Virus record (IMG/VR): IMGVR_UViG_3300047091_000002 | Coordinates: 1-64,000 of that record | Strand: one strand, 5' to 3' | Length of the DNA: 64,000 nt | From: a virus | In this document: piece by piece, positions 9,507 to 56,708 of the stretch | How positions within the stretch are numbered: position 1 is the stretch's first letter | Layout of the letters: every line of letters begins with the position of its first letter | Position numbers and translations under genes: made by a program | Notes under the pieces: model-generated | What the model was told of the DNA's origin: nothing | Databases searched by the model: none | Seen by the model: only the letters and a program-made list of their open reading frames with translations

Positions 9507-9749
9507 ATGGTTGAATTAGGAAAGAAATATAAGGATAAGATTACTCAATTTGAAGGTATTTGTACTGGATATGTTAAATATATATCCGGCTGTAATCAAG
9601 CATTACTTGTACCAAAAGTACTAAAGGATGGTTCACTACCCGAACCTGTGTGGTTTGATGAACAGAGATTGAAAAAAATATCTGATGTTAAAATTAAATT
9701 AGATAATTCAAAAAGTCCCGGATTTGATAAACAAGCACCTATAAGGTAA
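9507..9749 (+). CDS. Conserved-looking phage hypothetical protein
   Basis: LGKKYKDKITQFEGICTG...WFDEQRL pattern. Confidence 0.65.
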   Translation: MVELGKKYKDKITQFEGICTGYVKYISGCNQALLVPKVLKDGSLPEPVWFDEQRLKKISDVKIKLDNSKSPGFDKQAPIR

Positions 9750-9751
9750 TT

Positions 9752-9988
9752 ATGGCAGAAGAAAAGATACTAGAACTACTTGATGCAGCAATTGTACAGT
9801 TAAATTCTTTAGGAAAACAGGTGGAAGTAGGCGATTATTTTGAGTATAAGGTCGGTATACGAGTATTTCGAGTTATTGTAGAAGGTGCTAAAGATCAAGC
9901 GCATCTACTAATTGCGGAACGAGATTCTTTAGTTGAACGAGAAGAATTTTTGGAAAAGCAAATTATTGATAGTAGACGATGTACCTGA
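9752..9988 (+). CDS. Hypothetical protein
   Basis: ORF in operon-like run. Confidence 0.55.
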   Translation: MAEEKILELLDAAIVQLNSLGKQVEVGDYFEYKVGIRVFRVIVEGAKDQAHLLIAERDSLVEREEFLEKQIIDSRRCT

Positions 9989-10016
9989 AATTATTTTAGT
10001 TATTGAATAAGGGTTT

Positions 10017-10295
10017 ATGGAACAACAGATAAAAACTTGTACTAATTGTGATCACTGTATGGTCACATTAAGAATAAATAAAACTCCAGAAGATCTTCTT
10101 AAGGAGGAACCTGGTCCTCTCTCTCTATTCGGAGAGTTAGATTCTAAGATAAAGAAAGTGTATTGCAGAGTCGGTTTATGGACAAATAATTACGGAGGTT
10201 CATTCGATTTTCCTTCTCTAAAGGTATTAAATGCAACCCGTGTAGCCGAAAAATACGCAAAAGATTGTCCTTTATATTCTCCAGAGGAGAAGTAA
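10017..10295 (+). CDS. Cys-containing hypothetical protein
   Basis: CTNCDHC...C...C pattern; abuts polymerase start. Confidence 0.6.
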   Translation: MEQQIKTCTNCDHCMVTLRINKTPEDLLKEEPGPLSLFGELDSKIKKVYCRVGLWTNNYGGSFDFPSLKVLNATRVAEKYAKDCPLYSPEEK

Positions 10296-38556: not shown

Positions 38557-39381
38557 TTACGGAACTCTTTTAAGTATAAAGTACAATTTGCCAAATTGGT
38601 ATGCTGGCTCTAAAATATATTTAACTGCTCTCCAAGTTTTATTCCAGAAACCATGCACCGGGACTGGATAAAAACTGTCATGTATAAATTTTCTTGTATC
38701 TGTACTTATTCCATGTAAATCTTCTGTAACTCCCGATAGATTAGTTCCTATAGGAGTATAGGCTTTAATTAATCCGTCTGAGTCAATAACGACTGCATTG
38801 AGATTTGAGAGAAGTTCTGCGACTTGGGGTGTCGTAGCCTCGACTAGAGTAGAAAATCCCTTAGAACCCCGTTCTAGCGCCATTACAGCCCCTTGTAGAT
38901 GCGGAGTAGTTTCTTCTATAGCCCGATCTACGTGAAGTATTACTCCAGTCAGGGCTGTACCGTTATTATTTAGTTGTTTAGTTCCCTCTTCTATAAGATT
39001 ACGACTGGCAACTAAATTAGTATCTAAAGTCAACATTCTTTGCTGAACACTGAATGAAATTGATCTGAGTTCAATTCTAGCATCACCTACAAAACCAACT
39101 AATTCGTTTTCTACACGGGTAAGACCTTCTACAGTATCACGACTTCCTTTAGCAACGGCACGAACCTCCTGAATAGTTCCCGTAAGTTCATCTAGGGCAA
39201 TATTTAATTTGGCTGAACTTGCTCCTGCAATATTATTGGCATTACGCCAAGACCATAATGCCCATATCAGCATCAAGCCAATCAAAACAGTTATAGCAAA
39301 ATATCCAGCTTCTCTATAAGTCCGAAATCTCTGTTTGCTTGTCTCAAGATGTTCTCTAACTAAATCTGTATTCTCGCTCAT
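38557..39381 (-). CDS. Single-TM coiled-coil membrane protein (MCE- or i-spanin-like architecture)
   Basis: N-terminal TM (YFAITVLIGLMLIWALW) followed by long amphipathic helices. Confidence 0.55.
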   Translation of the reverse strand: MSENTDLVREHLETSKQRFRTYREAGYFAITVLIGLMLIWALWSWRNANNIAGASSAKLNIALDELTGTIQEVRAVAKGSRDTVEGLTRVENELVGFVGDARIELRSISFSVQQRMLTLDTNLVASRNLIEEGTKQLNNNGTALTGVILHVDRAIEETTPHLQGAVMALERGSKGFSTLVEATTPQVAELLSNLNAVVIDSDGLIKAYTPIGTNLSGVTEDLHGISTDTRKFIHDSFYPVPVHGFWNKTWRAVKYILEPAYQFGKLYFILKRVP

Positions 39382-40661
39382 TATAACTCCAATTTGTACT
39401 GAAATGCCGGAATAACCCTATTATACGTAGGATCATTATCTGCCTCTTTAAGACTGGATAATCTCATATCTCCTACTGGATATTGACGAGTGGATTCAAC
39501 AATCCACTGCGCTATCGGAGTTTGCAATTGCCCAATCGATTGGGCAAAAGTATCAGCTCCATTCATAGGAGGATTGATAAATAAATGTACTCCATTAGAT
39601 AGCAAGGCATAAAGTCCAAAATGTACGTGCCCTACATAAACAATTTGAGCCTTTTCCGCATCGTTTCTACAAGCATTGAATTTATCTATTTGCGTAGAGA
39701 TTGCCTCAATAGGAACTACCTTAGCAGGATTCCCAGTATTAAACACTGTATCCCCGTGCAGAATTAATACATTATGATCAAAGACTTTATAAGTAGTATA
39801 AGGAGTTAAGGGTTGATGAAAATAAAGTCTTTCTTCTTTACGAAATGCTTCTCTAACTATTTCCATTATAATAGTTAAAAAAGAATCGTACTTTTGGCTT
39901 CTGGCTCTTTCCCTACCTTTAACAGTGGTAATCATTCTATCGTGATTACCCGGAGATACAAATACATTGATCTGCGGATAATAATCTAATTCATAATCTA
40001 ATAGAGCAATAAGGTATCTAGCAGTACCTAGAACTTGCCAAGTAATAGGATCAATATTATGATCTTCTGCATGAATTAGACCTTGTATTTGATCTCCGTC
40101 AATATTTAGATTGAGTCCACCGCATTCTTTTCTATGATCTAACTTATAATTCGCAAGTTCAACTGCAAATTTTCCTAGTCTTCGAGCAGCAATTTCCCAA
40201 TTAAAAGCATTTCCTTCTACTTCTCTAGGATCTATAGTGCAACCAAAATGATTATCCGATAAATGTCCCGTAACAAATCTTTCCACTTTTTCCGGTTTAG
40301 GAATATAGACTTTTTTTCTAGTAGATACTTGTATGGGCTGCTCTTTAAGAGCATCAATAACGGATTGTTTAAATTTATCTAATCTATGAAGCTCAGTTCC
40401 AAGTTCCTTTTCAAGTCTGCTTACGTACTTATTTCTTTCCTGAGTACCTCTAATAGCTCCAAGATCCTTAAGACATTCACTACCAAACACGTCTTTTACA
40501 AATGAACTAAAGCTACCGAACCTCTTCCTAAATTCCCATTCTCCATATTGCCCTCCACCTTTTTCATATCTGGAAAAAGTCATATCATAAGATTCAAATT
40601 CAATTGCTTTTGCAGATTTACGTACATCCTCGATAAGATTTTCGTATGTAACTTTACTCAT
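39381..40661 (-). CDS. Metallophosphoesterase (calcineurin-like)
   Basis: SDNHFG, GD, GNHDR, HGD, GHVH motifs. Confidence 0.85.
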   Translation of the reverse strand: MSKVTYENLIEDVRKSAKAIEFESYDMTFSRYEKGGGQYGEWEFRKRFGSFSSFVKDVFGSECLKDLGAIRGTQERNKYVSRLEKELGTELHRLDKFKQSVIDALKEQPIQVSTRKKVYIPKPEKVERFVTGHLSDNHFGCTIDPREVEGNAFNWEIAARRLGKFAVELANYKLDHRKECGGLNLNIDGDQIQGLIHAEDHNIDPITWQVLGTARYLIALLDYELDYYPQINVFVSPGNHDRMITTVKGRERARSQKYDSFLTIIMEIVREAFRKEERLYFHQPLTPYTTYKVFDHNVLILHGDTVFNTGNPAKVVPIEAISTQIDKFNACRNDAEKAQIVYVGHVHFGLYALLSNGVHLFINPPMNGADTFAQSIGQLQTPIAQWIVESTRQYPVGDMRLSSLKEADNDPTYNRVIPAFQYKLEL

Positions 40662-40682
40662 TTTTCTCCTGAGTAGCTGAAA

Positions 40683-41237
40683 TTAATACTTGATTCTATC
40701 GGCAAGTCCTAATTTAACAGCCGATTCGGAATCCATATATGTATCAACATCAAATCTCTTAAGGAATTGTTTTATGGTAACGGGAGGAGTCATTCTACGA
40801 CAAAGAATTTCCCAAGCCCTATTACGAATCCTTTCAGATTCACGGGCATAAGCCGAAACCTCTCGTATTCGAGATTCTGTTATTTTACTATAACCTTCAT
40901 GAAGCATTATAGTAGCATTCGGAGAAAGCTCTCTAATATCGCCTGCTTGTAGAATGACCGTGCCCATAGACATTATATCCCCATAACCAACGATTCTGAC
41001 TCGGTTATTCTTACAATGTCTAATAGCATCATAAATTGCCAAACCATTAGACATGCATCCACCGGGACTATTTAATATTAATGTAATATCGCCAGCGGTA
41101 GAACTTAAAACATGCAAAGCGGATATAATTTTGCTGAATGCTTTTTGTGTTACTTCTCCAGTATAAATAACTGTCCTCGTAGGTATATATAAACCATTAA
41201 TAAACAAATGATCTATATAATCATGCTTTGTTGCCAT
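40683..41237 (-). CDS. clpP: ClpP-like protease
   Basis: LNSPGG....GLAIYDAI, MSMGTVILQAG..R...NATIMLHE, D.YM...AVKLGLAD. Confidence 0.88.
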   Translation of the reverse strand: MATKHDYIDHLFINGLYIPTRTVIYTGEVTQKAFSKIISALHVLSSTAGDITLILNSPGGCMSNGLAIYDAIRHCKNNRVRIVGYGDIMSMGTVILQAGDIRELSPNATIMLHEGYSKITESRIREVSAYARESERIRNRAWEILCRRMTPPVTIKQFLKRFDVDTYMDSESAVKLGLADRIKY

Positions 41238-41242
41238 AAAAT

Positions 41243-41749
41243 CTAACTATTGAATAATAATGATTCCGCCGCCCGTCTTCGCACTAATCCCTTCAACGTT
41301 TTTCCACCAGCTTTTGACCACTTGCCAAATTCTTGACTTGCTCCAGAATAATCACCTTTGTTAATCTTCTTAAGCAACGTAGAATTTCTAAGAGAATTTA
41401 CACCAAGATTAAACGCGAAAGATACAAGTGCGGCAAATTGATTATCTGTTACTGGAACTTTAACTAGATTCTCAACAGGTATTGAATGTATTTTAATATC
41501 CACCCTAAGTAACTCGTTTGCTTCATCTAAAGTAATTCCATTGGGATACAAATCATGCGCTATCATTCCGGCATTAGGAATTTTAGTAGTTAGAAACCCA
41601 TTTCCATACTTGATTGCGTGCCCAAATCCTATCGTATAAATCCCAACCGCGTCAATATATGGATCTAGATTAACCGTTTTAGGATTACCATCTGCAATAC
41701 CTTCAAAACTTTTAATAAGATCGATACCAGCTTGATTTACTTCTCTCAT
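41243..41749 (-). CDS. Endolysin, GH24 lysozyme
   Basis: IKSFEG...YIDAVGIYTIGFGH; NQFAALVSFAFNLG; GLVRRRAAE. Confidence 0.95.
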   Translation of the reverse strand: MREVNQAGIDLIKSFEGIADGNPKTVNLDPYIDAVGIYTIGFGHAIKYGNGFLTTKIPNAGMIAHDLYPNGITLDEANELLRVDIKIHSIPVENLVKVPVTDNQFAALVSFAFNLGVNSLRNSTLLKKINKGDYSGASQEFGKWSKAGGKTLKGLVRRRAAESLLFNS

Positions 41750-42196: not shown

Positions 42197-42637
42197 CTAT
42201 TTAATCCTTTGAATAAGTCTCTTCAACCTATCAAACCAATAGTATACACTAAATCTATGCACTTTGTCAAGTCTTTTCTTTCCTACTGGGTGATATATTT
42301 TTTGCAAGTCGCGATGCAGTAAGTGTCTACTGATTATAAAACAGATAAGTGTTGCTATAGGCGGTCCCAATGCAGTAACATAATGGATAAGATTTACTGG
42401 AATAGTAATATACATACCTAAGATTGGTATAGTGATATAGGCATGGTTTGCCATAGGAGGTAATATTAAAGCCACCATTAATCTTAGTACCAAGCCCAAC
42501 AAAGATACGCTAAAAGCTGCTATTTCCCATTTCCAAGTAGGTGAAGAAAGTTGCTTCTTAAGAGACCATTCTTGGTAGATAAGAAACCCGAATAATAGAA
42601 AATAACCAATTAACCATATTACTACAACAATATCCAT
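42197..42637 (-). CDS. Three-TM membrane protein (holin-like)
   Basis: Three hydrophobic helices and basic C-terminal tail. Confidence 0.55.
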   Translation of the reverse strand: MDIVVVIWLIGYFLLFGFLIYQEWSLKKQLSSPTWKWEIAAFSVSLLGLVLRLMVALILPPMANHAYITIPILGMYITIPVNLIHYVTALGPPIATLICFIISRHLLHRDLQKIYHPVGKKRLDKVHRFSVYYWFDRLKRLIQRIK

Positions 42638-43020
42638 TATATCGCCTGTATATCTAATTTATATTTATGAATAACCGCAGTTAGCATAAATGATGCCGCC
42701 AGTCGCTCTCCAGACGCTTGAGATGGATCGGAAATAAGCGAGTTAAGATCTTTTGCAAATAATTTAGCATCGTCTGTACTTAAAGTTCCCGCTAAATAAC
42801 CGTCAATAAGTTTATCTCTGTCAGGGGTTATTGGATGATGGAGTATAGCAGCGGCATGTTGTTCCATCATGGACCAAAACAAACCTACCTTAGTCTCTAC
42901 CTCTTTAAGTCTATCTAAAACATTACGGGAATCCTGCGACTTATTAAAAAAAGCCTGATACAGGATTCCCAAGACGGTTACTACAATCGCTGCTGTGGCG
43001 AGTATATCAGTTATAGACAT
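42637..43020 (-). CDS. Single-TM membrane protein
   Basis: N-terminal TM then soluble domain. Confidence 0.6.
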   Translation of the reverse strand: MSITDILATAAIVVTVLGILYQAFFNKSQDSRNVLDRLKEVETKVGLFWSMMEQHAAAILHHPITPDRDKLIDGYLAGTLSTDDAKLFAKDLNSLISDPSQASGERLAASFMLTAVIHKYKLDIQAI

Positions 43021-43035
43021 AAACTAAATTAGTTG

Positions 43036-43314
43036 TTATTCGATTTCTACACCATTAAGAATATCTTCATTAATGGAATCGTAACAGTGTAGAAGTAGAT
43101 TAAGACAATCAATACCAGCTTCTTGCTGTTGAGAAGTAAGAACCCCATCAATACGGGTTTGTAGATCAGTTTCACCCATCGAATTATTGATAGATGCTGA
43201 TACTGCACTAGCAGCTAATTTATTGGAGCAGATTAAAAGTTTGCAAGATGCGTTCGCCACTTGACATTTTCCTTTCTTTATGTTAAAATAATTATATGAA
43301 TAACATAAAACCAA
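43036..43314 (-). CDS. Hypothetical protein
   Basis: ORF; true start probably the GTG near 43260 after AAGGA. Confidence 0.45.
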   Translation of the reverse strand: MVLCYSYNYFNIKKGKCQVANASCKLLICSNKLAASAVSASINNSMGETDLQTRIDGVLTSQQQEAGIDCLNLLLHCYDSINEDILNGVEIE

Positions 43315-43946
43315 ATTATGGCCGTTTGAAAATTATAAAAGAAGCGCCAATTCGTAAGAATCATAGATATATGCTATGTCAATGCGAATGTGGAACAATA
43401 AAAGAAGTTGCGTTAACTTCTCTGAAACAAGGATTCACTCTGTCTTGCGGTTGTTTTGGTAAAGAACAACGTCGAAAAGCACTTACAACTCACGGTCTTA
43501 CGAAAACTCCTGAATACTGGGTATTTCAACACATGCATCAAAGATGCGAAAATCCCAAAGATGCGGAATACCACAATTATGGCAAACGCGGAATATGTGT
43601 ATCCCCTAGGTGGAAAACTGTTGATGTTTTCTATAAAGATATGGGACCACGCCCATCTCCGCAACATTCTTTAGACCGCATTGATAACAATAAAGGATAT
43701 TATCCTGAGAACTGTAGGTGGACAACATCGCAGACCCAGAACAATAATAAACGGGTTAATAAAATTATCTCCTTTCAAGGAGAATCATTAACTGTTACTC
43801 AATGGGCTACTAAACTCGGATGGAATCCAAGTATTATATACTCTCGCTTACGAGATAATTGGAATATTGACGATACATTATCCTATCCAATTATTAGAGG
43901 TGGTTGGGCTGCTCGTCGTGCAAGGGGTTGGAACCCAAACATTTAA
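43296..43946 (+). CDS. HNH homing endonuclease inserted antisense in the lysis region
   Basis: LCQCECG, SCGC, HGLTKTPEY, RCENP..YHNYG.RGI.V, SLDRIDNNKGYYPENCRW. Confidence 0.92.
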   Translation: MNNIKPNYGRLKIIKEAPIRKNHRYMLCQCECGTIKEVALTSLKQGFTLSCGCFGKEQRRKALTTHGLTKTPEYWVFQHMHQRCENPKDAEYHNYGKRGICVSPRWKTVDVFYKDMGPRPSPQHSLDRIDNNKGYYPENCRWTTSQTQNNNKRVNKIISFQGESLTVTQWATKLGWNPSIIYSRLRDNWNIDDTLSYPIIRGGWAARRARGWNPNI

Positions 43947-43956
43947 AATAAAATAA

Positions 43957-44256
43957 TTATTTTCTAGTACGTTTTTCAGCATTTTGTAATCCTTGCATTT
44001 CAGCTACAGTTGTAGCTAGAATTTGATATTGCGCGCTAAGATATTCAAGTTTTTGTTGTAGTTGTTGTATGGATTCTTTTTGGCTCTCTTGTCCACGAGA
44101 TATTCCACCGGACCAGTACCCTCCAGCGAGGGTCTGTGCAAAAATAAATATTAAAATAGTTACGCAGATTGCGTATATTCCAACTAAATCCTTCTTATCG
44201 TTATTCCTGATCTCGCTATGAACCGTTGGATGAGTAGAAGAAAGGTGTTGATCCAC
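43957..44256 (-). CDS. Single-TM plus coiled-coil membrane protein (holin-like)
   Basis: TM followed by heptad region. Confidence 0.55.
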   Translation of the reverse strand: MDQHLSSTHPTVHSEIRNNDKKDLVGIYAICVTILIFIFAQTLAGGYWSGGISRGQESQKESIQQLQQKLEYLSAQYQILATTVAEMQGLQNAEKRTRK

Positions 44257-44270
44257 TAACGAGTCTCCTC

Positions 44271-44699
44271 TTACTTTTTAGTTCGCAGAATAGTTGCGAC
44301 AGCGCATCTTTCTCCATTAAACATCCGAGGATGTAAGCCTATGGCTACCGGAAATTCAGAACCATCTTTATGTTGTGCTACCAAGTTCATATCGGTAGTT
44401 CCCATAGGGCGGGACGATGGGAGATGAGAATAGCTGCCAAAATGTTTATCATGATTAGTGTGAAATCTTTCTGGTATAAGAAAATTTAAAGATTTTCCAA
44501 AGAGTTCACCCTCTATATAGCCGAACATTGTATCTGCTAAAGGTGTTGAGTAAACTATCACCCCCTCATCTAACAATACAATGATAGCTGGGACGCATTG
44601 AGAAATAGCATCACTAGCTGCGCTTTTATCAAGCGTGGCTCTTAATGCACTTGCTCTATTTTTAAGATCTTCTAATGAGCTTGTCTCTGAATTAACCAT
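44271..44699 (-). CDS. Stand-alone PAS-domain protein
   Basis: AIIVL..GVIVY...A..MFGY...EL.GKSLNFLIPERF..NH...MG...L.AQHKDGSEFPV.IGL; start at ATG 44699. Confidence 0.9.
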   Translation of the reverse strand: MVNSETSSLEDLKNRASALRATLDKSAASDAISQCVPAIIVLLDEGVIVYSTPLADTMFGYIEGELFGKSLNFLIPERFHTNHDKHFGSYSHLPSSRPMGTTDMNLVAQHKDGSEFPVAIGLHPRMFNGERCAVATILRTKK

Positions 44700-44929
44700 A
44701 TAATAATTCCCGTTATTAACGCAAGTCCTTCCAGTCCTATAGCCCCCATACAACCGTAAACTATAGTCTGTAGTCGCCCGACTTTCTCTTTCTCAACTGC
44801 TGAGTCAACTTCGAGTTTAGATACTCGTAATTCTTGCAATGTATCTAACTTTTTAGAAACTACCTGTAGTTCCTTAACGATATTTTCCATAATGACCGCG
44901 AGTTCGGTCATCTGATCACGTTCTGGCAT
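44672..44929 (-). CDS. Coiled coil plus C-terminal TM protein (XhlA/holin-like)
   Basis: RVSKLE heptads then hydrophobic C-terminal helix. Confidence 0.55.
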   Translation of the reverse strand: MPERDQMTELAVIMENIVKELQVVSKKLDTLQELRVSKLEVDSAVEKEKVGRLQTIVYGCMGAIGLEGLALITGIIIWLIQRQAH

Positions 44930-45214
44930 TTATGATCTTCTTCCACTAAAATAGTAAGCTAAATAGAATAGTATTATAGCAGTTCCCGCAGTTAAAAAGG
45001 CTCTGAGAATCCAAAAATTATCTCCTTCTGGAAATATAGAAATATAAAATCCTAATATTCCAGATGTAATAAAGGTGAAAAGAGGAAGAAGTCTAAGTCT
45101 GCTGGCGATTGGATTAGTTTTATATTTTTGCAGACTAAGAAGTAAAGCTATCGACCCTCCAGCTACACAAAACGACACAATTCCATTAATTACTCCTACC
45201 AGATCATTTTTCAT
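44930..45214 (-). CDS. Three-TM small membrane protein
   Basis: Three hydrophobic segments in 94 aa. Confidence 0.6.
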   Translation of the reverse strand: MKNDLVGVINGIVSFCVAGGSIALLLSLQKYKTNPIASRLRLLPLFTFITSGILGFYISIFPEGDNFWILRAFLTAGTAIILFYLAYYFSGRRS

Positions 45215-45528
45215 TTTCTTCTTACCTCTTGTGCCAAATTCTCGAAAACACTCTTCATATTATCGGTCCCTTTTTCAACCGCGCTCGCTGTCTGTTGAAG
45301 CGCGGTTTCAAGTTTCATTAAATCCTCACGTCGAGCATTCATCGAAGATAATAACTGCTCATCTTTTTTATCAATTCGTTGCATTAGCCATCGAACAATC
45401 AATCCAAATGCTGTAATGAGAAATAAAAGGACTATTAAGATTAATGTAGCACTTAATCCTACTTCCTTTACTGCTTGTGTAGCATCTGAGATAGATTGAA
45501 AAAAATTAAATATATAATAAATATTCAT
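45211..45528 (-). CDS. Single-TM plus coiled-coil protein (BhlA-like holin architecture)
   Basis: TM then helical tail; first gene after tail fibre. Confidence 0.55.
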   Translation of the reverse strand: MNIYYIFNFFQSISDATQAVKEVGLSATLILIVLLFLITAFGLIVRWLMQRIDKKDEQLLSSMNARREDLMKLETALQQTASAVEKGTDNMKSVFENLAQEVRRK

Positions 45529-48500
45529 TATATCAAATATCCGAATAAATCTACTTTTAGTGTTGCTGCACTACCAAATGCACTATTTACTTTTAATTGA
45601 ACCTTAAATCCAGAATTAATTAATTCTCCAGTTGCTATATTAGCAGAAGTATCCGTGTATATAATTTGTTTATATACTGCGCTGCTTGTAAAATATGCTG
45701 CTATATCAGCATTCGTTAAATTACTCGATGTTTCTTCATTTACGGTTCTGAATGATGCGGAAAGAGTCGTGAGATCTGTACTGGGACTTCGTAGAATTAT
45801 TCTAGTTAATACAAGTGTTTTTCCAATCGGCACTGTATAGGCATCCTGCAAGGATGTGGTATTAACATCCAAAATAAATCCGTTTACTAAAATTTGCTCT
45901 GTTGGCGTATCAGACCAGGATAAAATTACATCCCCACTAGATGGTGCAGCAGCCTTGAGAAATTGTCCTGCGGACGGATCATTTGTAGGTAATGTAAAAA
46001 TTAATGCGTTGGTAGCATTTCCGGCTCGGATTGATGTTAAATTAGTTGTTGACGAATTAGCTAACTTAAGTAAACCTGTCTGGGTTGATACTACTCCAAC
46101 CTGGATTGAGGTATTGATTGTCGGAGTCTGAGAAAAACTAGGCGCTCCTGCGTTAGCTGTTAATATACTATTAGCAGCACCTTGAGAAGTAACTTGAATT
46201 GCCGAGGTAGAATTACCATATAAAACACCATTAGATGTAAATGTGGTAGTTCCAGTACCACCTTGTCCTACTACGATACCAGCAGTAGCAGACAACTCAG
46301 TTGTAGTAATTGCCGATAATCTCGCCAGTGGAACAGTGCCCGATCCTAGATCAGATGCAGAAAGAATCGCCCATAAAGCATCTGTTCCATCACTTCTTAA
46401 ATACCTTGCGCTAGAACCTAATGCAAGTCTAACATCATTAGTGCCATCATTAACTATTAAATCACCACGAGTAGTAGTAGGACTTAATGCATCGAATGCA
46501 GCAGTTTGAGTAGATTGACCAGTTCCACCACGAGAAATTGCTAATTGCCCTGACCAACCTAACGTATGCGTAGAGCTAACACTTGTTATAGTAACATTTG
46601 TATCATCTACAAATGTTTGAGTAGATGCAGTTAAACCGTTGAAACTTGTAACTATTGAACTTGCGCCTACAATTATTTCCGAAGAATCGGAAAATAACAT
46701 AACAGCTTCTGTAGCACCTCCCCCATCATCTCTAATAAAAAATCTAGCTTTATTAGCTGCTGGAGCAGATGGAGTAGACATTTCAGTAAACTCTAATGCT
46801 GCACCTGCTACGGCTGGATTCGTAAGAGCAAGAATGCCGGCAGCACTTCGGATAAGTCGCAAGTCAGAACTTCCACCCGAAGCAGATGTAGAACTCCATT
46901 GGAAGTAGGCTGCCGCTTTCTGGGCTATTCCACTTGCATCAATTCTTACATCATCTCCACCAGCAGTTCCTATATTAAAAAAATTAGTTATTACTGACGA
47001 AACGCCCACAAAAGAATATGCATAAGCAGAACAATAATCGCTATCATCAGCAAGTCTAAACCATATAGTAGCAGATTCTCTTTTTATTGCAGGAAACGCA
47101 CTTGATGTACCACCAAATAGTAGCATATCAAAATTGTTACCCGCGTTATTTAACAGGGTTAATTTACTATCAGCAGAGGATTTAATCTGGGATCTGGATG
47201 AAAATATAGATGCTCCGGTAGAAGCCAATGTAAGACTAGAAAATGTAGGAGAGCTAGAAGTTCCAATATCTTGCGAGGTGCCGATAACTACCGACCCTCC
47301 TAAAGATACTGGACTTCCAGAAATCGAAATTTGATTTGTTACTCCCGTTATTGTAATACTAGAGTTTGCAAGTTTAGAGTTGGCTATTGCAGCACTGGAA
47401 TTAATATCCGCATTAAGTATAGAATTTCCTAAACTTAATTTTGAGTAAGCTATCGCAGCGGAAGCACTTACATCAACATTTACTACTGATTTATTCAATA
47501 TAGATGTATAATCTATAGTACCAGTAACAATTACTCCATCGGCATCCACTATAAACTTATCTACTGGGCTGCCAGCCATATCAGTAATATGTATAAGATT
47601 TCCTGTAAATCCTCCTATAGGCACTCTACCACTGAAAAGTGGTCCCGTAGTAAGACTATTACCTATTAAATCGAAGACTGGTTCATCTGTTGCGCTGCCA
47701 TGAATAATCAAAACATCTGCTAATCCGCCCTTAACTATTTTAAAGTATTCTCCATAGTATATCAAATCCATTCCAATAGGGCTATATGACCATAACAAGT
47801 CCTTGAAGGTTGATCCTAAACTATTATAGATAATTAGTTGAGAACCTCCTCCAATACTAATAGAGAAGTCTGTATTAGCAACAGCACTTAATAGATTGGC
47901 TGTGATGCCAGTCTTATCGTTAAGTTTGATTAAATCCAGATATGTAGAGTCATCGAAACTATATTGAAATTTCCACGTTACGTGCTGCTCTCCACCCTCT
48001 ACAACCGGAACAAGATACGTTCTAACATATGAAGTTGTATCGGCGGCTGGACTACCTTCTACATTCCAAGCATGCCCTGTAAATTTAATTGCTGGAGAAT
48101 ATTGCTGATCTACTAACGCCGTAGAAGGAGTATTATTTTCAAGAGATAGTGCATACGTGGGAGTTTCAGCAATTGCATTTTTTATAATAGTTTGAACTAG
48201 ATTAAATACATTAGCAGTGTTCTCAAAAGCTACATTTGAACTAAGTCTTGCATCTGCGAGAGTTCCAGTAGTTAAATCAGTGGCACTACGAGTTGCTAAA
48301 TCGGCTAAACTAGATCCAGATTTAGATATTTTAGTCCAGGCTATTGCGGCTGCGTTATCTATTTGACTATTAGTAATTCCAGCTAAACGATTTACACTTA
48401 AAGTTCCAGATTGAATATCCGCTGCATCTATAGCAGTCCAAGCAGATGTACCTGTTCCAGTTCCCTTTAAGAATATTCCAGAGGTAGGAGTAGAACTTCC

Positions 48501-48854
48501 TGTGCCTAATTTAGTTTCTGCTGCGATAATCGCAAGAGAATGAATCATATGATGAACAGATACTATAAATAACTCTACCGAAACACCGGATGCGTGACTT
48601 ACTACTGTCGTACTATCTCTACCCCTAACAACATCTAAAAAGTGCGTAGAATCTTTTGATCCATAATAACAGATTTCAGTATTATTTATAGTAATTGCAC
48701 CAGTAGCAGGAAATGAAGACGTGCTGGATACTGTAATAATGGTATCAGTATCGCTATGAGAACCATTAAGCGTAGTAGTAGCATTATTACGAGTCTCTTG
48801 CAGCGATGAATTAGTATCAAGAGAGGTCGGGAAATTAGGAGTATCTGTTGGCAT
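45528..48854 (-). CDS. Tail fibre / receptor-binding protein (1108 aa)
   Basis: S/T/G/A-rich; repeated IxNxxIxxxAAIAxxK segments; position downstream of tail genes. Confidence 0.75.
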   Translation of the reverse strand: MPTDTPNFPTSLDTNSSLQETRNNATTTLNGSHSDTDTIITVSSTSSFPATGAITINNTEICYYGSKDSTHFLDVVRGRDSTTVVSHASGVSVELFIVSVHHMIHSLAIIAAETKLGTGSSTPTSGIFLKGTGTGTSAWTAIDAADIQSGTLSVNRLAGITNSQIDNAAAIAWTKISKSGSSLADLATRSATDLTTGTLADARLSSNVAFENTANVFNLVQTIIKNAIAETPTYALSLENNTPSTALVDQQYSPAIKFTGHAWNVEGSPAADTTSYVRTYLVPVVEGGEQHVTWKFQYSFDDSTYLDLIKLNDKTGITANLLSAVANTDFSISIGGGSQLIIYNSLGSTFKDLLWSYSPIGMDLIYYGEYFKIVKGGLADVLIIHGSATDEPVFDLIGNSLTTGPLFSGRVPIGGFTGNLIHITDMAGSPVDKFIVDADGVIVTGTIDYTSILNKSVVNVDVSASAAIAYSKLSLGNSILNADINSSAAIANSKLANSSITITGVTNQISISGSPVSLGGSVVIGTSQDIGTSSSPTFSSLTLASTGASIFSSRSQIKSSADSKLTLLNNAGNNFDMLLFGGTSSAFPAIKRESATIWFRLADDSDYCSAYAYSFVGVSSVITNFFNIGTAGGDDVRIDASGIAQKAAAYFQWSSTSASGGSSDLRLIRSAAGILALTNPAVAGAALEFTEMSTPSAPAANKARFFIRDDGGGATEAVMLFSDSSEIIVGASSIVTSFNGLTASTQTFVDDTNVTITSVSSTHTLGWSGQLAISRGGTGQSTQTAAFDALSPTTTRGDLIVNDGTNDVRLALGSSARYLRSDGTDALWAILSASDLGSGTVPLARLSAITTTELSATAGIVVGQGGTGTTTFTSNGVLYGNSTSAIQVTSQGAANSILTANAGAPSFSQTPTINTSIQVGVVSTQTGLLKLANSSTTNLTSIRAGNATNALIFTLPTNDPSAGQFLKAAAPSSGDVILSWSDTPTEQILVNGFILDVNTTSLQDAYTVPIGKTLVLTRIILRSPSTDLTTLSASFRTVNEETSSNLTNADIAAYFTSSAVYKQIIYTDTSANIATGELINSGFKVQLKVNSAFGSAATLKVDLFGYLI

Positions 48855-49811: not shown

Positions 49812-52800
49812 TTAATAAACTGGATAATTATTAGGATAATTATTAGTTGCTTCCAAATCTCCATTAATAGGATTACCGGGATTATACGGAGGTGGAAATT
49901 GGCTGCTTGGTGGTAGAGGAACGTAATTACTAAAACTACTCCAACCATCACTTCCGGCACCTCTATACATATTTCTATATCTAATTCGTAAAGATCTAGT
50001 TAATGTTCCAGCAGGAGAAATCTTATAAAGAACTCCCGGTCTAAAGGGAATTATTTCACTTGTTTGTAGCGATCCGGGGCTAGTAAACTTCTGAAATTGA
50101 ATATCGGTTACAGAAAATGCATTTACTCCACTTGGAACCTGGACTTCTATAACATTTACAGGAGAACCGGATTCATCTACCCCCCGTGTAACTCGCATCG
50201 GACCTGTACCAGCGGGAACGGTTAAGGCGGTATCGGAAAAAACATTATCAAACCCGTTAAGAATCGTTATATCAATAACACTATTTCCTATAACGTCTTC
50301 TAATGGTCTCGAATAAGTTGAAAGTGGTCCAACCGTAGTCCATACACTAAAAGTTCCACGGTTCTGCATATTTTGAACTCTAGCATGAAACCATAGATTT
50401 TCTAGCACATCTGTCTTTCTTTTAAACGTAATTGGACCAGATCCGGTTTTCTCTTTACGAACATTCACTCCGGGAGTGGCAGAATTCGCCATTTGCACTT
50501 GCCATTCAAGTTGAGAATTAACATTCGATAGCGGAATAACTGGAGTAACAATAAATACTCCAAAATATTCTTGTACGTCTATTGATTGCGGTGCCGAAGG
50601 TGCTGCAATATCACCGGGAATATTGTCTGCCTCATTCGGTAATATTGTAGATGTAACGGCGGCAGTACCGTTGGTCTCCACCCCAGAAACTATGTTAACC
50701 GCCAATACTGTAGCGAACACCCCGTTAGTAATAAATGTAGATGCTATTTCGGATCGCTTTAAATGTGTAGTATGATGCGTATCGGTAACTAAAATAGTTG
50801 CAGCAGCTTGGGAAGCTGCAATTTGTCCGGTGTGAGGATCCATGAAAGTCCCCCCTAACCCAGATGTATAAAATATCTTATATCCTATTAAAGATTTAAC
50901 ATTGGAACTAGATCTAATCCATGTAGTTTTCCAACCCCTCTTATTGGTAAAGGTTAAATTTAAATTAGTTACAGCATTCGCGGCAGCAGTATCCTCTGTT
51001 TGAGCGTCATCTCTTATTGGAATTACTAACGGGGATGTAGTAGATGTTCCATCGGTTTCTACTCCGTTTACTACATTTACCGGAATTACTTTAATTCTTA
51101 CACCTGCTTGAAATTGCAATGCTATCTCAGAAAATTTCAAATGCGTTGTATGGTGGGTATCAGTAACTAAAATAGTTGCACCAATTTCAGTATTAGGAGA
51201 TGCTAGTTGTCCTGTATTAGCATTCATAAAATTCGTACCTAAAATATCTACATAGGAAATTTTATATCCTTTTATTGAACTTATATTAGATGCTGGTCTA
51301 ATCCACGTACCCTTCCACCCCTTACGATTTGTCCAAGTAAGTGCTATATTACCTACTACAGATGCAGCCGCCGTATCTTCTGAAATAGCATCTCCGGGTA
51401 AAGTTTGAGTAGTCGAATACTCAGTAAATGGTCCAGCACTTAATGTTCCGGTTGTTTGATTAAAATTATAGGATCGCACTGCTATTTTTAATCCATTAAT
51501 CTGAAATATACTGGCTAATTCCAATCTTAAAATATTTAAATTAATTTCATTTGGTTCAGTAAAAAATTCAGAATTAGCATCTGTAGTTATTGGTGTTCCC
51601 GGATTATTAATATCAACCCAATTATTTGAATCATTTCCGGCACGAATTTTAAAGCCGTACTTGGCTATTGCTTTAGGAGATTCGTCTGGACTAGACTGTA
51701 TGTGAGTCGGAGTATCCCACCGAGCTTTTGTTAACTTTTTATTTACTTTAAACGTAAGTCCAGCTTGCACTGCGGTTGCTTGGGAAGTTGAATTCACCCA
51801 ATTTGCCGCATCTCTATCGAATACGAAATCCGAATTTCCAGTAAGTGCTGCAATAGATGTAGTTGTTCCTGACGAGCCGAATCCTATATTAGAAGAAGGA
51901 TTCGTAGTTTCTATCGGACCTGTCGAGCCATTAGTAAAATTATATATGCGAGCTATTATCCCTATTCCCCCAGTAATAGCTCCGGCAGGAAGCGTTGCCT
52001 TGGTAACATGTCCGTGAAATCTAGATGGGCCAAAAAATCCCGAATTTCCGCCCCTTCCGAATGTTGCCGTAGTTGATGCAGTCGAAACGATACCAATATC
52101 CGCACCAGTATCAGGATTAAAGAGATTTCTTGCTACAGTAGTTCCGTTAGCAGTTGCGGGATAGAAGAAGCCGAATTCGTGGTCATGCACAGTATTATTG
52201 TTATTTGCAGATTGATTTAATTTAACAATAATTCCTTTGGAATTTTTCCAAGTCGCCGTTCCTGTAGCAACATCTGGGGCACCAACATCTACCGCGCCAC
52301 CACTAGAATCCGAACCCGGCGTTATTAACGAACTTGTTGATGTATTAGTCGATTCAGTCAATACTCCACCAACAATATTAGTTCCCCAAATCCGAAGCCT
52401 TACTCCAGAAGCTAAAAATATAGGATCAACTTGAGAACGTTTCAATTTAAGATGAAGGTGGCTACCTTCTACCTTGAATTTTGCTTGATTCTCCGTAGTT
52501 CCAGATGCAAAGGCTACTCCGGTATCAGGATCCATAAATCTAGCAGGTACGGAATCATTGAAAATTGATGCGTAATAAAATTGATGCGATGTTGCGTTAG
52601 TTGCAGGTCTATCCCACGTACCTTTAAATCCGAATCCATCTTTCCATCTTAATAAAATATTTTGCGGTGCGGATTCCATCGCAAGATCTCCGGTTGTAAC
52701 AGGAAGCCCCGAAGTAGTATTTAAAACAGTGGAAAAGTTAGTAGACCAACGCCCGTTTTTCTTTTGAGCTAGTACGGATACGAAATATGTTTGACCGGAT

Positions 52801-55800
52801 GTAATTGTTATTCCGCCGAATACCTCATCATTATAAAATCTTCTATGCGATACCGATTGAACATCTATAGCCTGAACATCTACATTTTTCGCAGTATTTC
52901 CAACATTATAAACCGTAACAATACCATTTCCTCGAATGGCATTAAGAGTTTTCGATACCCCCGGTGTATCGGTTCCATCAGTTGCTATAGTTATATCTTG
53001 TCCCGGTCCTTTTGTTCCGAATGGAACAGTAGATATAAGAACTAAGTATCTACGAACGGAGACTTCTTCTATAGCATCCCAATCGAATAAATATCCATCA
53101 TTTTTCTGTCTTATACTTCCACCAATTACAGTTTGTAATGTGTTTGTGAGTCCTGCTATACCGGGATGAAATTGAAAAGGTGCGGCATCGAATATAGCAT
53201 CTGTTTTGAAACTTTCTATTGGAGGCGGAGTACCAATATATCCTATTAAATATACTTTTTCAACAGTTTGTTGTTGCCCTACTTCTCGAATTTTAGGTCC
53301 ATAAAATACTATATCAGATGGAAAATAAGTACGATGTTTCTTTTTAGCCCACCTGAAATCTCGATTCATTATGATGTCTACATAACCATTTGCTAAATCC
53401 TCATCACTTACGTCTTGCAGATGGGAGTGAACTATTCGATTATCATCATAATTTCCTATAGAGTAATCTTCTACAGGATCAGATTCTTTCATCCGCATCT
53501 TTATAGCAGAATTACTTTGCCCAAGATGGATTCTATATTTACCTGAAAACTCTACTCCAGCAGTTTGATCATCATCATCCTCTATTGCTCCTCCTAAAAC
53601 TTGCGGAGCGGATTGGAAGAAATCAACAAGTGATATAGATCCTACAGTAACAGTTGGATTTGTTGCATCAAAGGGGGTTACAATAGTTCCCTCATCACCA
53701 AATCTATCTACCCAAGCAGCGGATGCCCATATAATATCATCTTTATCGGTATCTTTAAAATCCAAATGATACCGAGATATTCCAGTATCGGAAACTATTT
53801 TATGTGTTACAATAACTCCATCATCACTATCCTGATTGAATTCACTTCTTAATGTAACATCAGAAGTTCCAACATCCTTTCTTAATACGAAAAATCTAAT
53901 AAACTCTGCTCTACCAGTTATTTCCTTACCTGTAGGTGGTGGTCCCACACGAACTACTAATCTGCCACCGGGTTTAATTTTTACTACTTCAAATGGTGTA
54001 GGTGCTGGAAGTGTAGGAAGAGTACAAGCAAGTTCAAGAAAATCGCCACTATATTTATCTCCCATTCCTTGAACTCTAACTTTAATTGATTTAGACAATG
54101 GTTCATAAGGAAGAGGATACGATTCGTTGAATATCTCATCCACTTGCCTCCATATAGGAGGTGTTATAGGATCATTATCTTCATCAAGCAATCGTTGTAT
54201 TTGATAGATTTGGGCACCAGAAGGTCTACCCCAAGTATAAGTGATTAAATTAGTTTTTGCAGAATAGTGACAATGTACTGTAGATGTATCAATAGATAGG
54301 GGCGGATAAATCACCTCAACAAATAATTTATGCACCTTACTACCATCAGAAACAGTACCTCCAATAAATACTGGGGCTTCATGCAAATCTCCAGTAGCAT
54401 AATCAGCAGGATCAAATGATGAAGATGCCGGTTTTCCTGCTAAAGTAATCGAACCTCCAGAAATTCCCAAGGTAACATTATCAATATCATTCCAAGTACC
54501 GGAAGATATTCTAGGTCCGGTAGCCATTAAAGGTCTAAATCCAGGTCCGAAATCTTCTTGTTTTGCTAAGAGTTCTCGGTTAATTAACTCTACAGAATCC
54601 GGTTCTCCCAAAGTAATATGATAGTTGAGTACGCATACAATACTATTTGTCGAAGGATCATAATCACCGCCTAAAAATTCAACACTTACCTCACTTATGG
54701 GGACTGTAGCCGGTTCAATTAAATATTCGCTAGGTACATCTACAGCGAAAGTCTTAGGAGGAATAGGAAAATGACTTGTAAATATCGATTCTCTAAGTAT
54801 AGTTCCTTTAGGAAGAGGGAAAGCAAAATCATTTATAATTGCTTGACCTATAGAAGTACATTCCGCCTCGGTAATGGCAGTTTCGGATTGTATTAAATCT
54901 CCTTGACGAACTCCGAATACTGCCTGACTCGCCGCATCCTCTACAACAACATCGGCTTGTTTAGCCTCGTCATAATTAAGAAGAAGTCTAATAACTCCTC
55001 TAAGAGGTAATCTATCCCCAACGAAAGTGGCTATAGCACCATTCCCCGATTTGGATATTGAAATATCGGCAGTAGTACCCTGCCCAGTATCTACTCTAAG
55101 TCTTCTTCCCGGTTCTCCAGTATAAGGATTGGCTAAAAGTACAACATCAATTGCAGGACCGTAACTTGCGCTCCAACCCCTTGCGCTTATTCCCGATCCC
55201 CCGGAAATAATTAATTTAGGTTTCCCAAATCTATTACTTGGAGCCGCACCAGAATAAACTATCTTTTCTGTAACTATTACAGTTGTTCCATCGCCAGAAG
55301 CAATTTGATCCGTTACCAAGAGCCCGTCCGGTATAGGATCTATTTCTATCGTATTTCCACTTCGAGATTTTATAGTTACAAATCCTCGAATATCTTCTGG
55401 ATCTCCATTAGAAAATATTCTTATAGAATCGGGTAAATCATTTACAGTGTGTCCAGAAGGAAAAGAAAGAGTTAGTATATTACTCGATATTCCAGTAATA
55501 GTAGCTAAGACAGTAGATCCAGCATCCGCATTTAATAGACTTTCTGCTATTGTTACTTGCAATCCACCGGGGGTAAATTGAGCTAACCAATTGTACGAAT
55601 ATTGAATTGTGCCAGAAGGTGCGGGACCTCCTTGCATAAATGGTGTTGCCTGAGAAAAAGTTGCTCCTCCTACTACTGCACCCATCGAGCCTGGGTTTAC
55701 TGAAACTCCTAATACAGTGATATTATTTCTACCAATAAATCCGCATACTACGCCTGATCCAGTATTATGAATATCCGATACTTCAACAGTAGTGGGATAG

Positions 55801-56708
55801 TGAATAGGAGTTATTTTCGGTAAGGTAGTTTCATCAGTAGCACCTATATCCCCACCATCCATTGAGACATTAAGTAACTCGGCAGCATCAAGTCCGTAAG
55901 GCGTAGCTCCTAATTTAAATGATGAATCTAAAGCATCTATCTCTCTAAATTCCATTACAGTAGAGTTAGGACCACCGGCAACATTTCCCTTAATTCTTTG
56001 GTAATTGATTATTTGCTCAGAAGGAACAATAGGTTCTTTAAACGGTGAAAAATCGTGATCATCTTTATCTACTGAAAGTCCCGATATGCCAAAACTCGAT
56101 TCATAATTAGCAGTAATTCCCAATCCACCGGGACTAGATGGATCTAATATAGCGATATAATTACCGGCAGCTACATTTTGTTGTCTTAATATATCCGATA
56201 ATTTGCCAAAATCCTCTGTATTAAGATATGGTACGCTATTACCATCAACTATATTGGTTACAACTAACGTAGAATCAAGAAGTGGAATAAGAGTTCTTAA
56301 AATCTCCCCAGATGTAGATTCAATAAATTCCATCTTCGGAAGAGGAATTCTATCGCAAGCCGTCAATCTATCAATTAAATCATACGTATAAACAACGATA
56401 GGTGCGGAAGCCGCTCCAGCATAAAAAGTAGTCTGGGTAGTTACGGGAATCATTTGAAACACCTCTCCCGTAGGAACTACTATACTGAATGCACTTTGAA
56501 CTCCCGGAGCGGCTTCTGGATTATCGGTAGCATCAATCATTACAGAAGCTACAGCACCTAATCCTTTTCTTACGGTTAATTGAAATTTCTCCCACACGAC
56601 GGAATGAGAAAAATCCGAGTTTCCACCAATTAACCGAAGATCGGTCTTTGTACTAGCCGTTGCTCCATACAGAGCAACTCCATATTTTTTCGTGTTATAT
56701 TTCGCCAT
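49812..56708 (-). CDS. Large tail tip / host-specificity protein with FN3-like repeats (2298 aa)
   Basis: Follows tape measure; N-terminal hub-like region; repeated beta-sandwich modules with D..AP linkers. Confidence 0.75.
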   Translation of the reverse strand: MAKYNTKKYGVALYGATASTKTDLRLIGGNSDFSHSVVWEKFQLTVRKGLGAVASVMIDATDNPEAAPGVQSAFSIVVPTGEVFQMIPVTTQTTFYAGAASAPIVVYTYDLIDRLTACDRIPLPKMEFIESTSGEILRTLIPLLDSTLVVTNIVDGNSVPYLNTEDFGKLSDILRQQNVAAGNYIAILDPSSPGGLGITANYESSFGISGLSVDKDDHDFSPFKEPIVPSEQIINYQRIKGNVAGGPNSTVMEFREIDALDSSFKLGATPYGLDAAELLNVSMDGGDIGATDETTLPKITPIHYPTTVEVSDIHNTGSGVVCGFIGRNNITVLGVSVNPGSMGAVVGGATFSQATPFMQGGPAPSGTIQYSYNWLAQFTPGGLQVTIAESLLNADAGSTVLATITGISSNILTLSFPSGHTVNDLPDSIRIFSNGDPEDIRGFVTIKSRSGNTIEIDPIPDGLLVTDQIASGDGTTVIVTEKIVYSGAAPSNRFGKPKLIISGGSGISARGWSASYGPAIDVVLLANPYTGEPGRRLRVDTGQGTTADISISKSGNGAIATFVGDRLPLRGVIRLLLNYDEAKQADVVVEDAASQAVFGVRQGDLIQSETAITEAECTSIGQAIINDFAFPLPKGTILRESIFTSHFPIPPKTFAVDVPSEYLIEPATVPISEVSVEFLGGDYDPSTNSIVCVLNYHITLGEPDSVELINRELLAKQEDFGPGFRPLMATGPRISSGTWNDIDNVTLGISGGSITLAGKPASSSFDPADYATGDLHEAPVFIGGTVSDGSKVHKLFVEVIYPPLSIDTSTVHCHYSAKTNLITYTWGRPSGAQIYQIQRLLDEDNDPITPPIWRQVDEIFNESYPLPYEPLSKSIKVRVQGMGDKYSGDFLELACTLPTLPAPTPFEVVKIKPGGRLVVRVGPPPTGKEITGRAEFIRFFVLRKDVGTSDVTLRSEFNQDSDDGVIVTHKIVSDTGISRYHLDFKDTDKDDIIWASAAWVDRFGDEGTIVTPFDATNPTVTVGSISLVDFFQSAPQVLGGAIEDDDDQTAGVEFSGKYRIHLGQSNSAIKMRMKESDPVEDYSIGNYDDNRIVHSHLQDVSDEDLANGYVDIIMNRDFRWAKKKHRTYFPSDIVFYGPKIREVGQQQTVEKVYLIGYIGTPPPIESFKTDAIFDAAPFQFHPGIAGLTNTLQTVIGGSIRQKNDGYLFDWDAIEEVSVRRYLVLISTVPFGTKGPGQDITIATDGTDTPGVSKTLNAIRGNGIVTVYNVGNTAKNVDVQAIDVQSVSHRRFYNDEVFGGITITSGQTYFVSVLAQKKNGRWSTNFSTVLNTTSGLPVTTGDLAMESAPQNILLRWKDGFGFKGTWDRPATNATSHQFYYASIFNDSVPARFMDPDTGVAFASGTTENQAKFKVEGSHLHLKLKRSQVDPIFLASGVRLRIWGTNIVGGVLTESTNTSTSSLITPGSDSSGGAVDVGAPDVATGTATWKNSKGIIVKLNQSANNNNTVHDHEFGFFYPATANGTTVARNLFNPDTGADIGIVSTASTTATFGRGGNSGFFGPSRFHGHVTKATLPAGAITGGIGIIARIYNFTNGSTGPIETTNPSSNIGFGSSGTTTSIAALTGNSDFVFDRDAANWVNSTSQATAVQAGLTFKVNKKLTKARWDTPTHIQSSPDESPKAIAKYGFKIRAGNDSNNWVDINNPGTPITTDANSEFFTEPNEINLNILRLELASIFQINGLKIAVRSYNFNQTTGTLSAGPFTEYSTTQTLPGDAISEDTAAASVVGNIALTWTNRKGWKGTWIRPASNISSIKGYKISYVDILGTNFMNANTGQLASPNTEIGATILVTDTHHTTHLKFSEIALQFQAGVRIKVIPVNVVNGVETDGTSTTSPLVIPIRDDAQTEDTAAANAVTNLNLTFTNKRGWKTTWIRSSSNVKSLIGYKIFYTSGLGGTFMDPHTGQIAASQAAATILVTDTHHTTHLKRSEIASTFITNGVFATVLAVNIVSGVETNGTAAVTSTILPNEADNIPGDIAAPSAPQSIDVQEYFGVFIVTPVIPLSNVNSQLEWQVQMANSATPGVNVRKEKTGSGPITFKRKTDVLENLWFHARVQNMQNRGTFSVWTTVGPLSTYSRPLEDVIGNSVIDITILNGFDNVFSDTALTVPAGTGPMRVTRGVDESGSPVNVIEVQVPSGVNAFSVTDIQFQKFTSPGSLQTSEIIPFRPGVLYKISPAGTLTRSLRIRYRNMYRGAGSDGWSSFSNYVPLPPSSQFPPPYNPGNPINGDLEATNNYPNNYPVY

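Follow-up and report, generated by a model that had tools for sequence, protein, structure and literature searches.

We describe a two-gene module in a 64,000 nucleotide stretch of phage DNA, positions 1 to 64,000 of the IMG/VR record IMGVR_UViG_3300047091_000002 (hereafter the window). The downstream gene of the pair, at positions 44271..44699 on the minus strand, encodes a stand-alone PAS protein of 142 amino acids (aa) that belongs to the FixL/DosP/FG214 lineage of heme-PAS domains by sequence and predicted fold. The upstream gene, at positions 44672..44929 on the same strand, encodes an 85 aa protein with an N-terminal coiled coil, a C-terminal transmembrane (TM) anchor at residues 62-80 and a short basic tail. 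We refer to this protein as the partner. The two genes constitute a phage-specific module of approximately 230 codons that is inherited together in otherwise unrelated phages. We suggest that the pair may act as a heme sensor at the membrane and, more tentatively, that it takes part in the timing of lysis. The window is the first 64 kbp of a complete metagenomic phage genome of 119,487 bp with direct terminal repeats, and has a GC content of approximately 35%. Megablast and tblastn searches against the INPHARED phages gave no match to the region or to the PAS protein, and the phage has no near relative among deposited phages.

The PAS domain, which had already been recognized in a first-pass annotation made from the sequence, covers residues 37-136 and matches Pfam PF00989 with 25.9 bits, above the curated cut-off of 22.6. 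A six-frame search of the 119,487 bp genome gave no other PAS match. Translation is predicted to start at the ATG at position 44699; a longer version starting from a TTG at 44753 is possible, and is unsupported by the relatives. When searched against all PDB sequences with phmmer, the top ranks were occupied by heme-PAS proteins only. FixL from S. meliloti (RmFixL, 1d06, E 9.7e-11) and the heme-PAS protein FG214 (10jx, E 1.1e-10) came first, followed by FixL from B. japonicum (BjFixL, E 3e-8 to 2.5e-7) and EcDos/DosP (E 1e-3 to 2e-2).

The predicted fold gives the same picture. An AlphaFold2 model based on 19 family members has a pLDDT of 91.8 and a pTM of 0.79. In brief, it consists of an N-terminal helix (residues 3-22), which is the short coiled coil pointed out in the first-pass annotation, a short second helix and a PAS core with the five-stranded antiparallel sheet and flanking helices of the PAS fold. 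Foldseek gave 369 matches in the PDB with E≤1e-3. All listed matches are PAS structures, the top 31 listed are all heme-PAS, and LOV and other PAS structures rank below these. The chain stops 3-6 residues past the last PAS strand and Pfam shows no second domain; HisKA and HATPase are absent. This agrees with the earlier description of a PAS domain lacking a kinase or other output. The solo 'PAS domain' proteins of uncultured phages in BFVD share 11-16% identity with the PAS protein.

Residue conservation was compared between 26 phage PAS sequences and 754 PAS domains taken from the 150 top-ranking cellular matches, aligned to one profile. The equivalent of the proximal His, H83, is present in all 26 phage sequences and in 737 of the 754 cellular domains. 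It is located on a helix (residues 77-92) in the model, together with H86, and aligns with H194 of RmFixL, H200 of BjFixL and H156 of FG214. The printed alignments thus place H83 on the heme-ligating His of FixL, where the first-pass annotation had put it. H86 is found in 24 of the 26 phage sequences and in 140 of the cellular domains, where Tyr occurs in 394. M99 is found in 25 phage sequences and 260 cellular domains, the latter having Ile in 304. The column of M104 is the one where R214 of S. meliloti FixL aligns. In the phage sequences it holds Met (20), Leu (4) or Ala (2) and never Arg, the residue found in 341 of the cellular domains. The absence of the O2-stabilizing Arg of FixL, suspected earlier for the window, therefore applies to the entire phage family.

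FG214 binds heme b with H156 as the proximal ligand, H175 as the distal ligand and M172 as an alternative distal ligand, based on electron paramagnetic resonance, nuclear magnetic resonance, mutagenesis and a 1.47-Å structure (preprint 10.64898/2026.03.15.711900). H156, H159 and M172 of FG214 align with H83, H86 and M99, and an equivalent of H175 is absent from the phage PAS proteins. M99 and M104 are candidates for a distal ligand. From the pattern of conserved residues we infer that the PAS protein may bind a b-type heme on H83, with a distal side that is lined with or ligated by Met. Such a pocket would follow the logic of EcDos and FG214, which sense redox state or the displacement of a ligand, more closely than that of FixL. 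We consider heme binding by the PAS protein probable.

A PAS domain without heme would either bind another ligand or, as a cofactor-less domain, stabilize or chaperone the membrane partner, and would not sense the environment. Many PAS domains have no known cofactor. The identity of the phage protein to solved heme-PAS domains is just 18-26%, and neither the distal Arg of FixL (R220) and EcDos (R97) nor the distal His of FG214 (H175) is conserved, so that the ligand chemistry cannot be read from homology. H83 is nevertheless invariant in 26 sequences with an average pairwise distance of 61%, and the nearly constant H86 and M99 match residues of the FG214 heme pocket. In addition, the top matches in both sequence and fold are all to heme-PAS, not to LOV, flavin adenine dinucleotide or PYP proteins, and direct reading of the family alignment gave neither the flavin-adduct Cys motif of LOV domains nor a four-Cys cluster. 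We therefore regard a PAS protein without heme as distinctly unlikely.

Relatives of the PAS protein were found by profile searches. A search with the single sequence gave one relative of similar length, and a profile of these two members gave a family of stand-alone phage PAS proteins of 124-169 aa, all metagenomic. Similarly, a single-sequence scan of IMG/VR found no loci; the family alignment was needed, and with it six more loci were found. Starting from either gene, we found the PAS-partner pair on 16 metagenomic phage contigs besides the window; 13 or more of these are distinct. Where individual loci have to be told apart, they are given by L numbers.

All loci that were fetched have, immediately upstream of the PAS gene, a gene for a protein of 72-143 aa whose N-terminal part is a coiled coil and which has a single C-terminal TM segment and 1-2 terminal basic residues. 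A gene of the partner family adjoins the PAS gene in all 17 loci, the window included. The first-pass annotation had named three neighbours as possible interaction partners of the PAS protein, and the linkage is strong for this one only. A homologue of the gene at 43957..44256 is found solely in L009 among the compared loci (7017-7448, E 4e-11), and the gene at 45211..45528 has a homologue in none of the other loci. BLASTP linked 13 of the partners to each other, with E down to 1e-19. A hidden Markov model (HMM) of eight partner sequences identified exactly one open reading frame (ORF) per locus in six loci outside the training set, always ending at the start of the PAS gene. The reverse search, with a partner profile against the protein database, gave 16 proteins, and both new long contigs examined carry a PAS gene directly downstream.

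The sharing of genes around the pair was assessed for 15 loci by an all-against-all BLAST of the ORFs on the same strand within 4 kb. The PAS gene was shared by all 15 and the partner by 13. The partners of the remaining two were identified with the HMM (L008) and by pairwise alignment (a truncated copy in L002). No other family was widely shared within 4 kb; other sharing was limited to three pairs of loci. The genomic backgrounds differ and include a crAss-type capsid (L003), a PolA-UDG replication block (L009) and giant proteins bearing Peptidase_M15 (L006 and L015). The pairwise distances of PAS proteins and partners are correlated (Mantel r 0.66, with none of 5000 permutations as high). 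We also made a quick, unrooted maximum-likelihood tree of 25 phage PAS sequences, the 45 best-scoring cellular multi-domain PAS domains and three short PAS proteins, and in this tree a branch with 99% SH-aLRT support separates the 25 phage sequences from the others.

The reading frames of the two genes overlap. In the window, the ATG of the PAS gene is formed by the codons ATA-TGG (Ile-Trp) at the end of the TM segment of the partner, 28 nucleotides before the partner stop codon. Start and stop overlap by 4-28 nucleotides in most other loci. This overlap argues for translational coupling and long co-inheritance of the two genes. We consider it highly probable that the two proteins form a physical complex. 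A complex prediction using the PAS protein and residues 1-60 of the partner gave a score of 0.00, which is no verdict and was counted neither way.

The family-wide data also bear on the idea that the PAS gene is what remains of a host sensor kinase, a decaying and functionless moron that came to lie near lysis genes by chance. Its closest cellular relatives are indeed the PAS repeats of giant multi-PAS sensor proteins, with 35-40% identity. Decay would be hard to reconcile with the features of the family. At least 17 contigs have an intact ORF, of 124-169 aa, some residues are invariant, the partner is always attached by overlapping reading frames, and the phage sequences group apart from the cellular domains. 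Nor are the relatives assembly duplicates of one phage, as their flanking genes differ. This origin is extremely improbable, and family-wide conservation effectively excludes it. A pattern scan of species-representative bacterial genomes, in which absence is weak evidence, gave only multidomain cellular kinases without a partner, no prophage copy and no host.

The partner has no significant match to any Pfam or PHROG family, and neither do most of the genes neighbouring the pair in the other loci. One of eight partners gave a weak match to a holin PHROG (phrog_689, E 2.6e-4). A language-model feature search placed the partner beside XhlA clusters with a score of 0.93-0.94, which we take as a lead only. 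The features of an XhlA-like protein, 70-140 aa with an N-terminal coil and a single C-terminal TM segment, are present in the partner, and the location in a lysis cassette is there in part. For comparison, genuine XhlA genes were taken from SPP1, Aramis and phage 9181. These are found by the XhlA HMM and have the same architecture as the partner. At the level of sequence, homology of the partner to the XhlA family itself (PF10779) was rejected; the HMM misses the partners in the window genome and in five related phage records at E≤10, and hhalign gave a probability of 7%. The resemblance of the partner to XhlA is one of architecture.

C-tail-anchored inner-membrane proteins, such as ElaB and YqjD of E. 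coli, have their coil facing the cytoplasm, and by analogy the architecture of the partner matches that of these proteins. XhlA is a holin-associated protein encoded in the lysis cassettes of Bacillus and Enterococcus phages; it is required for lysis by PBSX and thought to act together with the holin XhlB (PMC6834076, PMC10630273). Like the partner, it has an N-terminal coiled coil of approximately 60 residues, a C-terminal TM segment and a very short tail. Unlike the partner, it has no known pairing with a PAS protein.

We propose the following mechanism. The PAS protein would be cytoplasmic, since it has no signal peptide, and would bind heme b through H83, with M104 or M99 as a possible displaceable sixth ligand as in EcDos and FG214. 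Translational coupling would ensure that the PAS protein and the partner are made in a fixed ratio. The N-terminal helix of the PAS protein could then dock on the coil of the partner, on the cytoplasmic side of the membrane. If the heme changed its redox state or ligand, the association of the two proteins, or the oligomerization of the partner, would be altered, and the altered complex would advance or delay a late membrane event, most likely the triggering of the holin. The output would be functionally analogous to that of the cytoplasmic antiholin RIII acting on the holin T in phage T4. In other words, the heme-PAS protein and the partner may be an antiholin, or a cofactor of the holin, that responds to a signal. 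We assign slightly less than an even chance to such a part in lysis timing. The proposal in its complete form is somewhat unlikely. It states that many uncultured lytic phages have a dedicated, mobile sensor of redox state or gas that is based on heme and tethered to the inner membrane by an anchor protein of its own, and that this sensor gates holin triggering and sets the moment of lysis by the oxygen, redox or respiratory state of the infected cell.

The link between the pair and the lysis cassette is circumstantial. In the window, the pair is located 2.5 kb upstream of a GH24 endolysin gene, inside a run of seven small genes encoding membrane or coiled-coil proteins. Lysis cassettes are usually found where the pair is, among small membrane genes at the 3' end of the tail genes. 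In most loci, a holin-sized protein with 1-4 TM segments is encoded directly beside the pair, and weak matches to Rz-like spanins were found in the window, L005 and L012. A recognizable or candidate lysin lies within 3 kb of the pair in four loci only. These are the window, L005, with an endolysin-like LysM gene 1.9 kb away, and L008 and L010, where DUF5675 proteins are encoded 0.3-0.8 kb after the pair. DUF5675 is a C82-like peptidase that has been proposed to be a lysin (preprint 10.64898/2026.04.11.717860). A search by sequence against the PDB gave no match to DUF5675, and its status as a candidate lysin comes from this one preprint.

Several observations weigh against the lysis proposal. 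None of the small membrane ORFs in the window has a significant match to a known holin family in Pfam or PHROG. Of the first-pass description of a PAS gene among holin-like genes upstream of the endolysin, the setting among small membrane genes and the endolysin downstream are supported. In the window, PAS gene and endolysin gene are separated by five genes, including an HNH gene on the opposite strand. In approximately two thirds of the loci, no recognizable lysin was found within 3 kb, and linkage of the pair to recognized lysis enzymes is partial. In L013, the pair has capsid-like genes on one side and tail-like genes on the other, and no small TM gene is adjacent. Homology of the partner to XhlA or any annotated holin was not detectable, and its short basic C-terminal tail makes the topology ambiguous. 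A scan for promoters and terminators allowed no operon boundaries to be drawn; promoter-like sites were at chance level, with 34 found and 34.1 expected. As the scan was uninformative, late co-transcription is read from gene order alone. The distal Arg and His, being without conservation in the phage proteins as described above, likewise count on this side.

The same observations invite another reading, in which the membrane-tethered sensor pair is real and controls a function other than lysis. It could block superinfection or DNA entry, tune the respiration or energy state of the host late in infection, or take part in virion assembly or release at the envelope. The sole invariant linkage is that of PAS protein and partner. 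Beyond the setting of L013, the pair of L003 is flanked by the crAss-type capsid gene on one side and structural genes on the other, and many loci have the pair right after tail-fibre-like genes, a position where exclusion genes also occur. Expression of exclusion genes is usually early or from a prophage, whereas the pair lies on the late-gene strand, in the same direction as the late genes, and the scan of species-representative genomes gave no prophage copy. The holin- and spanin-sized membrane ORFs that flank the pair in most loci, and the DUF5675, LysM or GH24 genes near it in four, also speak against a function outside lysis. We judge such a function to be rather unlikely and prefer a role in lysis timing.

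The minus-strand genes of the window run in the order three giant proteins, small membrane and coiled-coil genes, partner, PAS, further small genes, GH24 endolysin and a ClpP-like protease. The giant ORFs are rich in Ser, Thr and Gly and are located at 45528-48854, 49812-56708 and 57349-63060 (1108, 2298 and 1903 aa). None of the three has a Pfam or PHROG match; we presume that they belong to the virion or tail of a phage that has diverged strongly. The 1108 aa late protein (45528..48854, minus) is encoded directly upstream of the run of small genes, and is tail-fibre-like by size and composition only. The first small gene after it (45211..45528, minus) encodes a 105 aa protein with an N-terminal TM segment and a coiled coil by hydropathy, and its PHROG matches are all weak. 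It is followed by a gene abutting that of the partner (44930..45214, minus), which encodes a 94 aa protein with three hydrophobic segments, a holin-sized candidate. This protein reached 21.8 bits with Bax1-I, below the cut-off of 34.1, and has no PHROG match and no homologue in the other loci.

Downstream of the PAS gene, the gene at 43957..44256 (minus) encodes a 99 aa protein with an N-terminal TM segment and a coiled coil by hydropathy. It is an i-spanin-like candidate; the match to the Rz-like spanin phrog_214 is weak (E 0.0015), the architecture fits, and we identified no o-spanin to go with it. The plus-strand HNH gene (43296..43946), which encodes a homing-type endonuclease with a match to phrog_374 (E 1.8e-59), then splits the run of small late genes. 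Further on are genes encoding a 127 aa protein with an N-terminal TM segment by hydropathy and no Pfam or PHROG match (42637..43020, minus) and a 146 aa protein with three TM segments by hydropathy and no Pfam or PHROG family (42197..42637, minus). The latter is the membrane gene nearest to the endolysin and is a holin candidate by position only. Between it and the endolysin gene is a minus-strand gene for a 103 aa soluble protein.

The endolysin (41243..41749, minus) is a GH24 phage lysozyme without a signal or signal-arrest-release segment (PF00959, E 1.8e-37; phrog_7, E 4e-48), and is 44-46% identical to lysozymes of Hafnia, Acinetobacter, Ralstonia and Brucella phages. Directly after it comes a ClpP-like head-maturation protease (40683..41237, minus; phrog_94, E 5.6e-28), and then an SbcD-like exonuclease or phosphoesterase (39381..40661, minus), for which the best phage match is to Myxococcus phage Mx1 with 29% identity. 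The gene order at 39381-41749 is unusual in that lysis, head and DNA metabolism genes are mixed. The proteobacterial-phage-like endolysin and the match of the exonuclease to phage Mx1 are clues to the host that are not decisive.

Three loci, namely the window, L030 (5918-6586) and L018 (6263-6808), have a homing-type HNH gene approximately 0.2-1.5 kb from the pair. The HNH proteins of the window and L030 are 33% identical (E 6e-23), and the HNH gene of the window is preceded by a near-consensus promoter-like site at 43261-43289 (11/12 with an extended TG). We speculate that homing endonucleases might help to move the PAS-partner module between phages. A small ORF with a Cys motif is located near the pair and a gene encoding a TM segment and coil in the window (43036-43314, minus; CKLLICS), L009 (7451-7729; CKLLLCS) and L018 (7374-7601; CVPCKVV). 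The resemblance was seen by eye, and BLAST and PHROG gave no match. In the window, the HNH gene stands between this ORF and the TM and coil gene.

Some further observations were made in the related loci. Just after the DUF5675 gene of L008, a 135 aa ORF (9508-9915) has a lipobox-like sequence (LLVSCS) at its N-terminus and a TM segment at its C-terminus, and resembles a unimolecular spanin by eye. L012, a 75.5 kbp IMG/VR phage, encodes a 230 aa protein with a Tad4 domain, an inhibitor of type I Thoeris (9722-10414, minus; Pfam E 1.4e-28), 1.3 kb downstream of the pair. Upstream of the module in L006 and L007 (1-5129) is a gene for a 2612 aa protein with matches to Peptidase_M15_3, a weak match to GGDEF and faint ones to ART-PolyVal. 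A 1599 aa protein in L015 appears to be a relative of this giant, with an M15-type N-terminus by eye.

The timing of lysis is a central fitness trait of phages, and its known regulators are antiholins and superinfection lysis inhibition. To our knowledge, none of these has a cofactor-based sensor. The first-pass annotation was aware of no description of ligand- or redox-gated lysis timing, and full-text literature searches on PAS proteins together with holins, endolysins or antiholins, or on phage-encoded heme sensors, likewise gave nothing relevant. A gating function of this kind would, if real, represent a new type of lysis control, a sensory input to lysis timing without a characterized precedent. 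A conserved and horizontally mobile sensor pair in the late region of many unrelated phages would mean that these phages respond late in infection to a chemical signal inside the cell, for which O2, NO, CO, redox state and heme are candidates. The module is small and well defined, lends itself to point-mutant predictions at H83, M99 and M104, and could provide a compact natural scaffold for ligand-gated lysis devices.

Several known systems resemble the pair in part. T4 RIII and RI with the holin T, lambda S107 and P1 LydB are small proteins that set the time of lysis by binding a membrane lysis protein, and RIII acts from the cytoplasmic side. Unlike the PAS-partner pair, they have no sensor domain or cofactor; they are not homologous to it, and the role of the pair is proposed from position only. 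Phage VP882 VqmA, a PAS protein with a helix-turn-helix (HTH) domain, is a precedent for a phage-encoded PAS receptor governing lysis decisions. Its output is DNA binding, and it switches between lysis and lysogeny by transcription, not at the membrane. The short LOV proteins DsLOV and W619_1-LOV, both among the Foldseek matches, are solo domains with N-cap helices that signal through partners, as proposed for the phage PAS protein, but they bind flavin via a Cys motif that is absent from it.

FixL and EcDos/DosP share with the phage protein the PAS fold, the proximal His on the F helix and sequence similarity at E 1e-10 to 1e-3, and they make up at least 20 of the top fold matches. They differ in having kinase or phosphodiesterase outputs and in the O2-binding Arg (R220 in BjFixL, R214 in RmFixL and R97 in EcDos), which is Met in 20 of the 26 phage proteins. 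Met95 of EcDos, 18 residues after the His, is matched in position by neither M99 (+16) nor M104 (+21).

FG214 from Fimbriimonas ginsengisoli (PDB 10jx/10jy) is the best fold match (E 1.7e-8) and joint-best sequence match (E 1.1e-10), and has the LIPERF..H..H motif in common with the phage protein. In FG214, heme ligation controls a switch between monomer and dimer through release of a sequestered surface (10.64898/2026.03.15.711900). The state of the heme thus switches association between proteins, which is the logic we propose for the phage pair. FG214 is a cellular protein fused to an HTH DNA-binding domain, whereas the phage PAS protein lacks an output domain and has a membrane protein as its partner. 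The phage module combines two known kinds of protein, a heme-PAS sensor and a membrane protein of the holin-accessory type.

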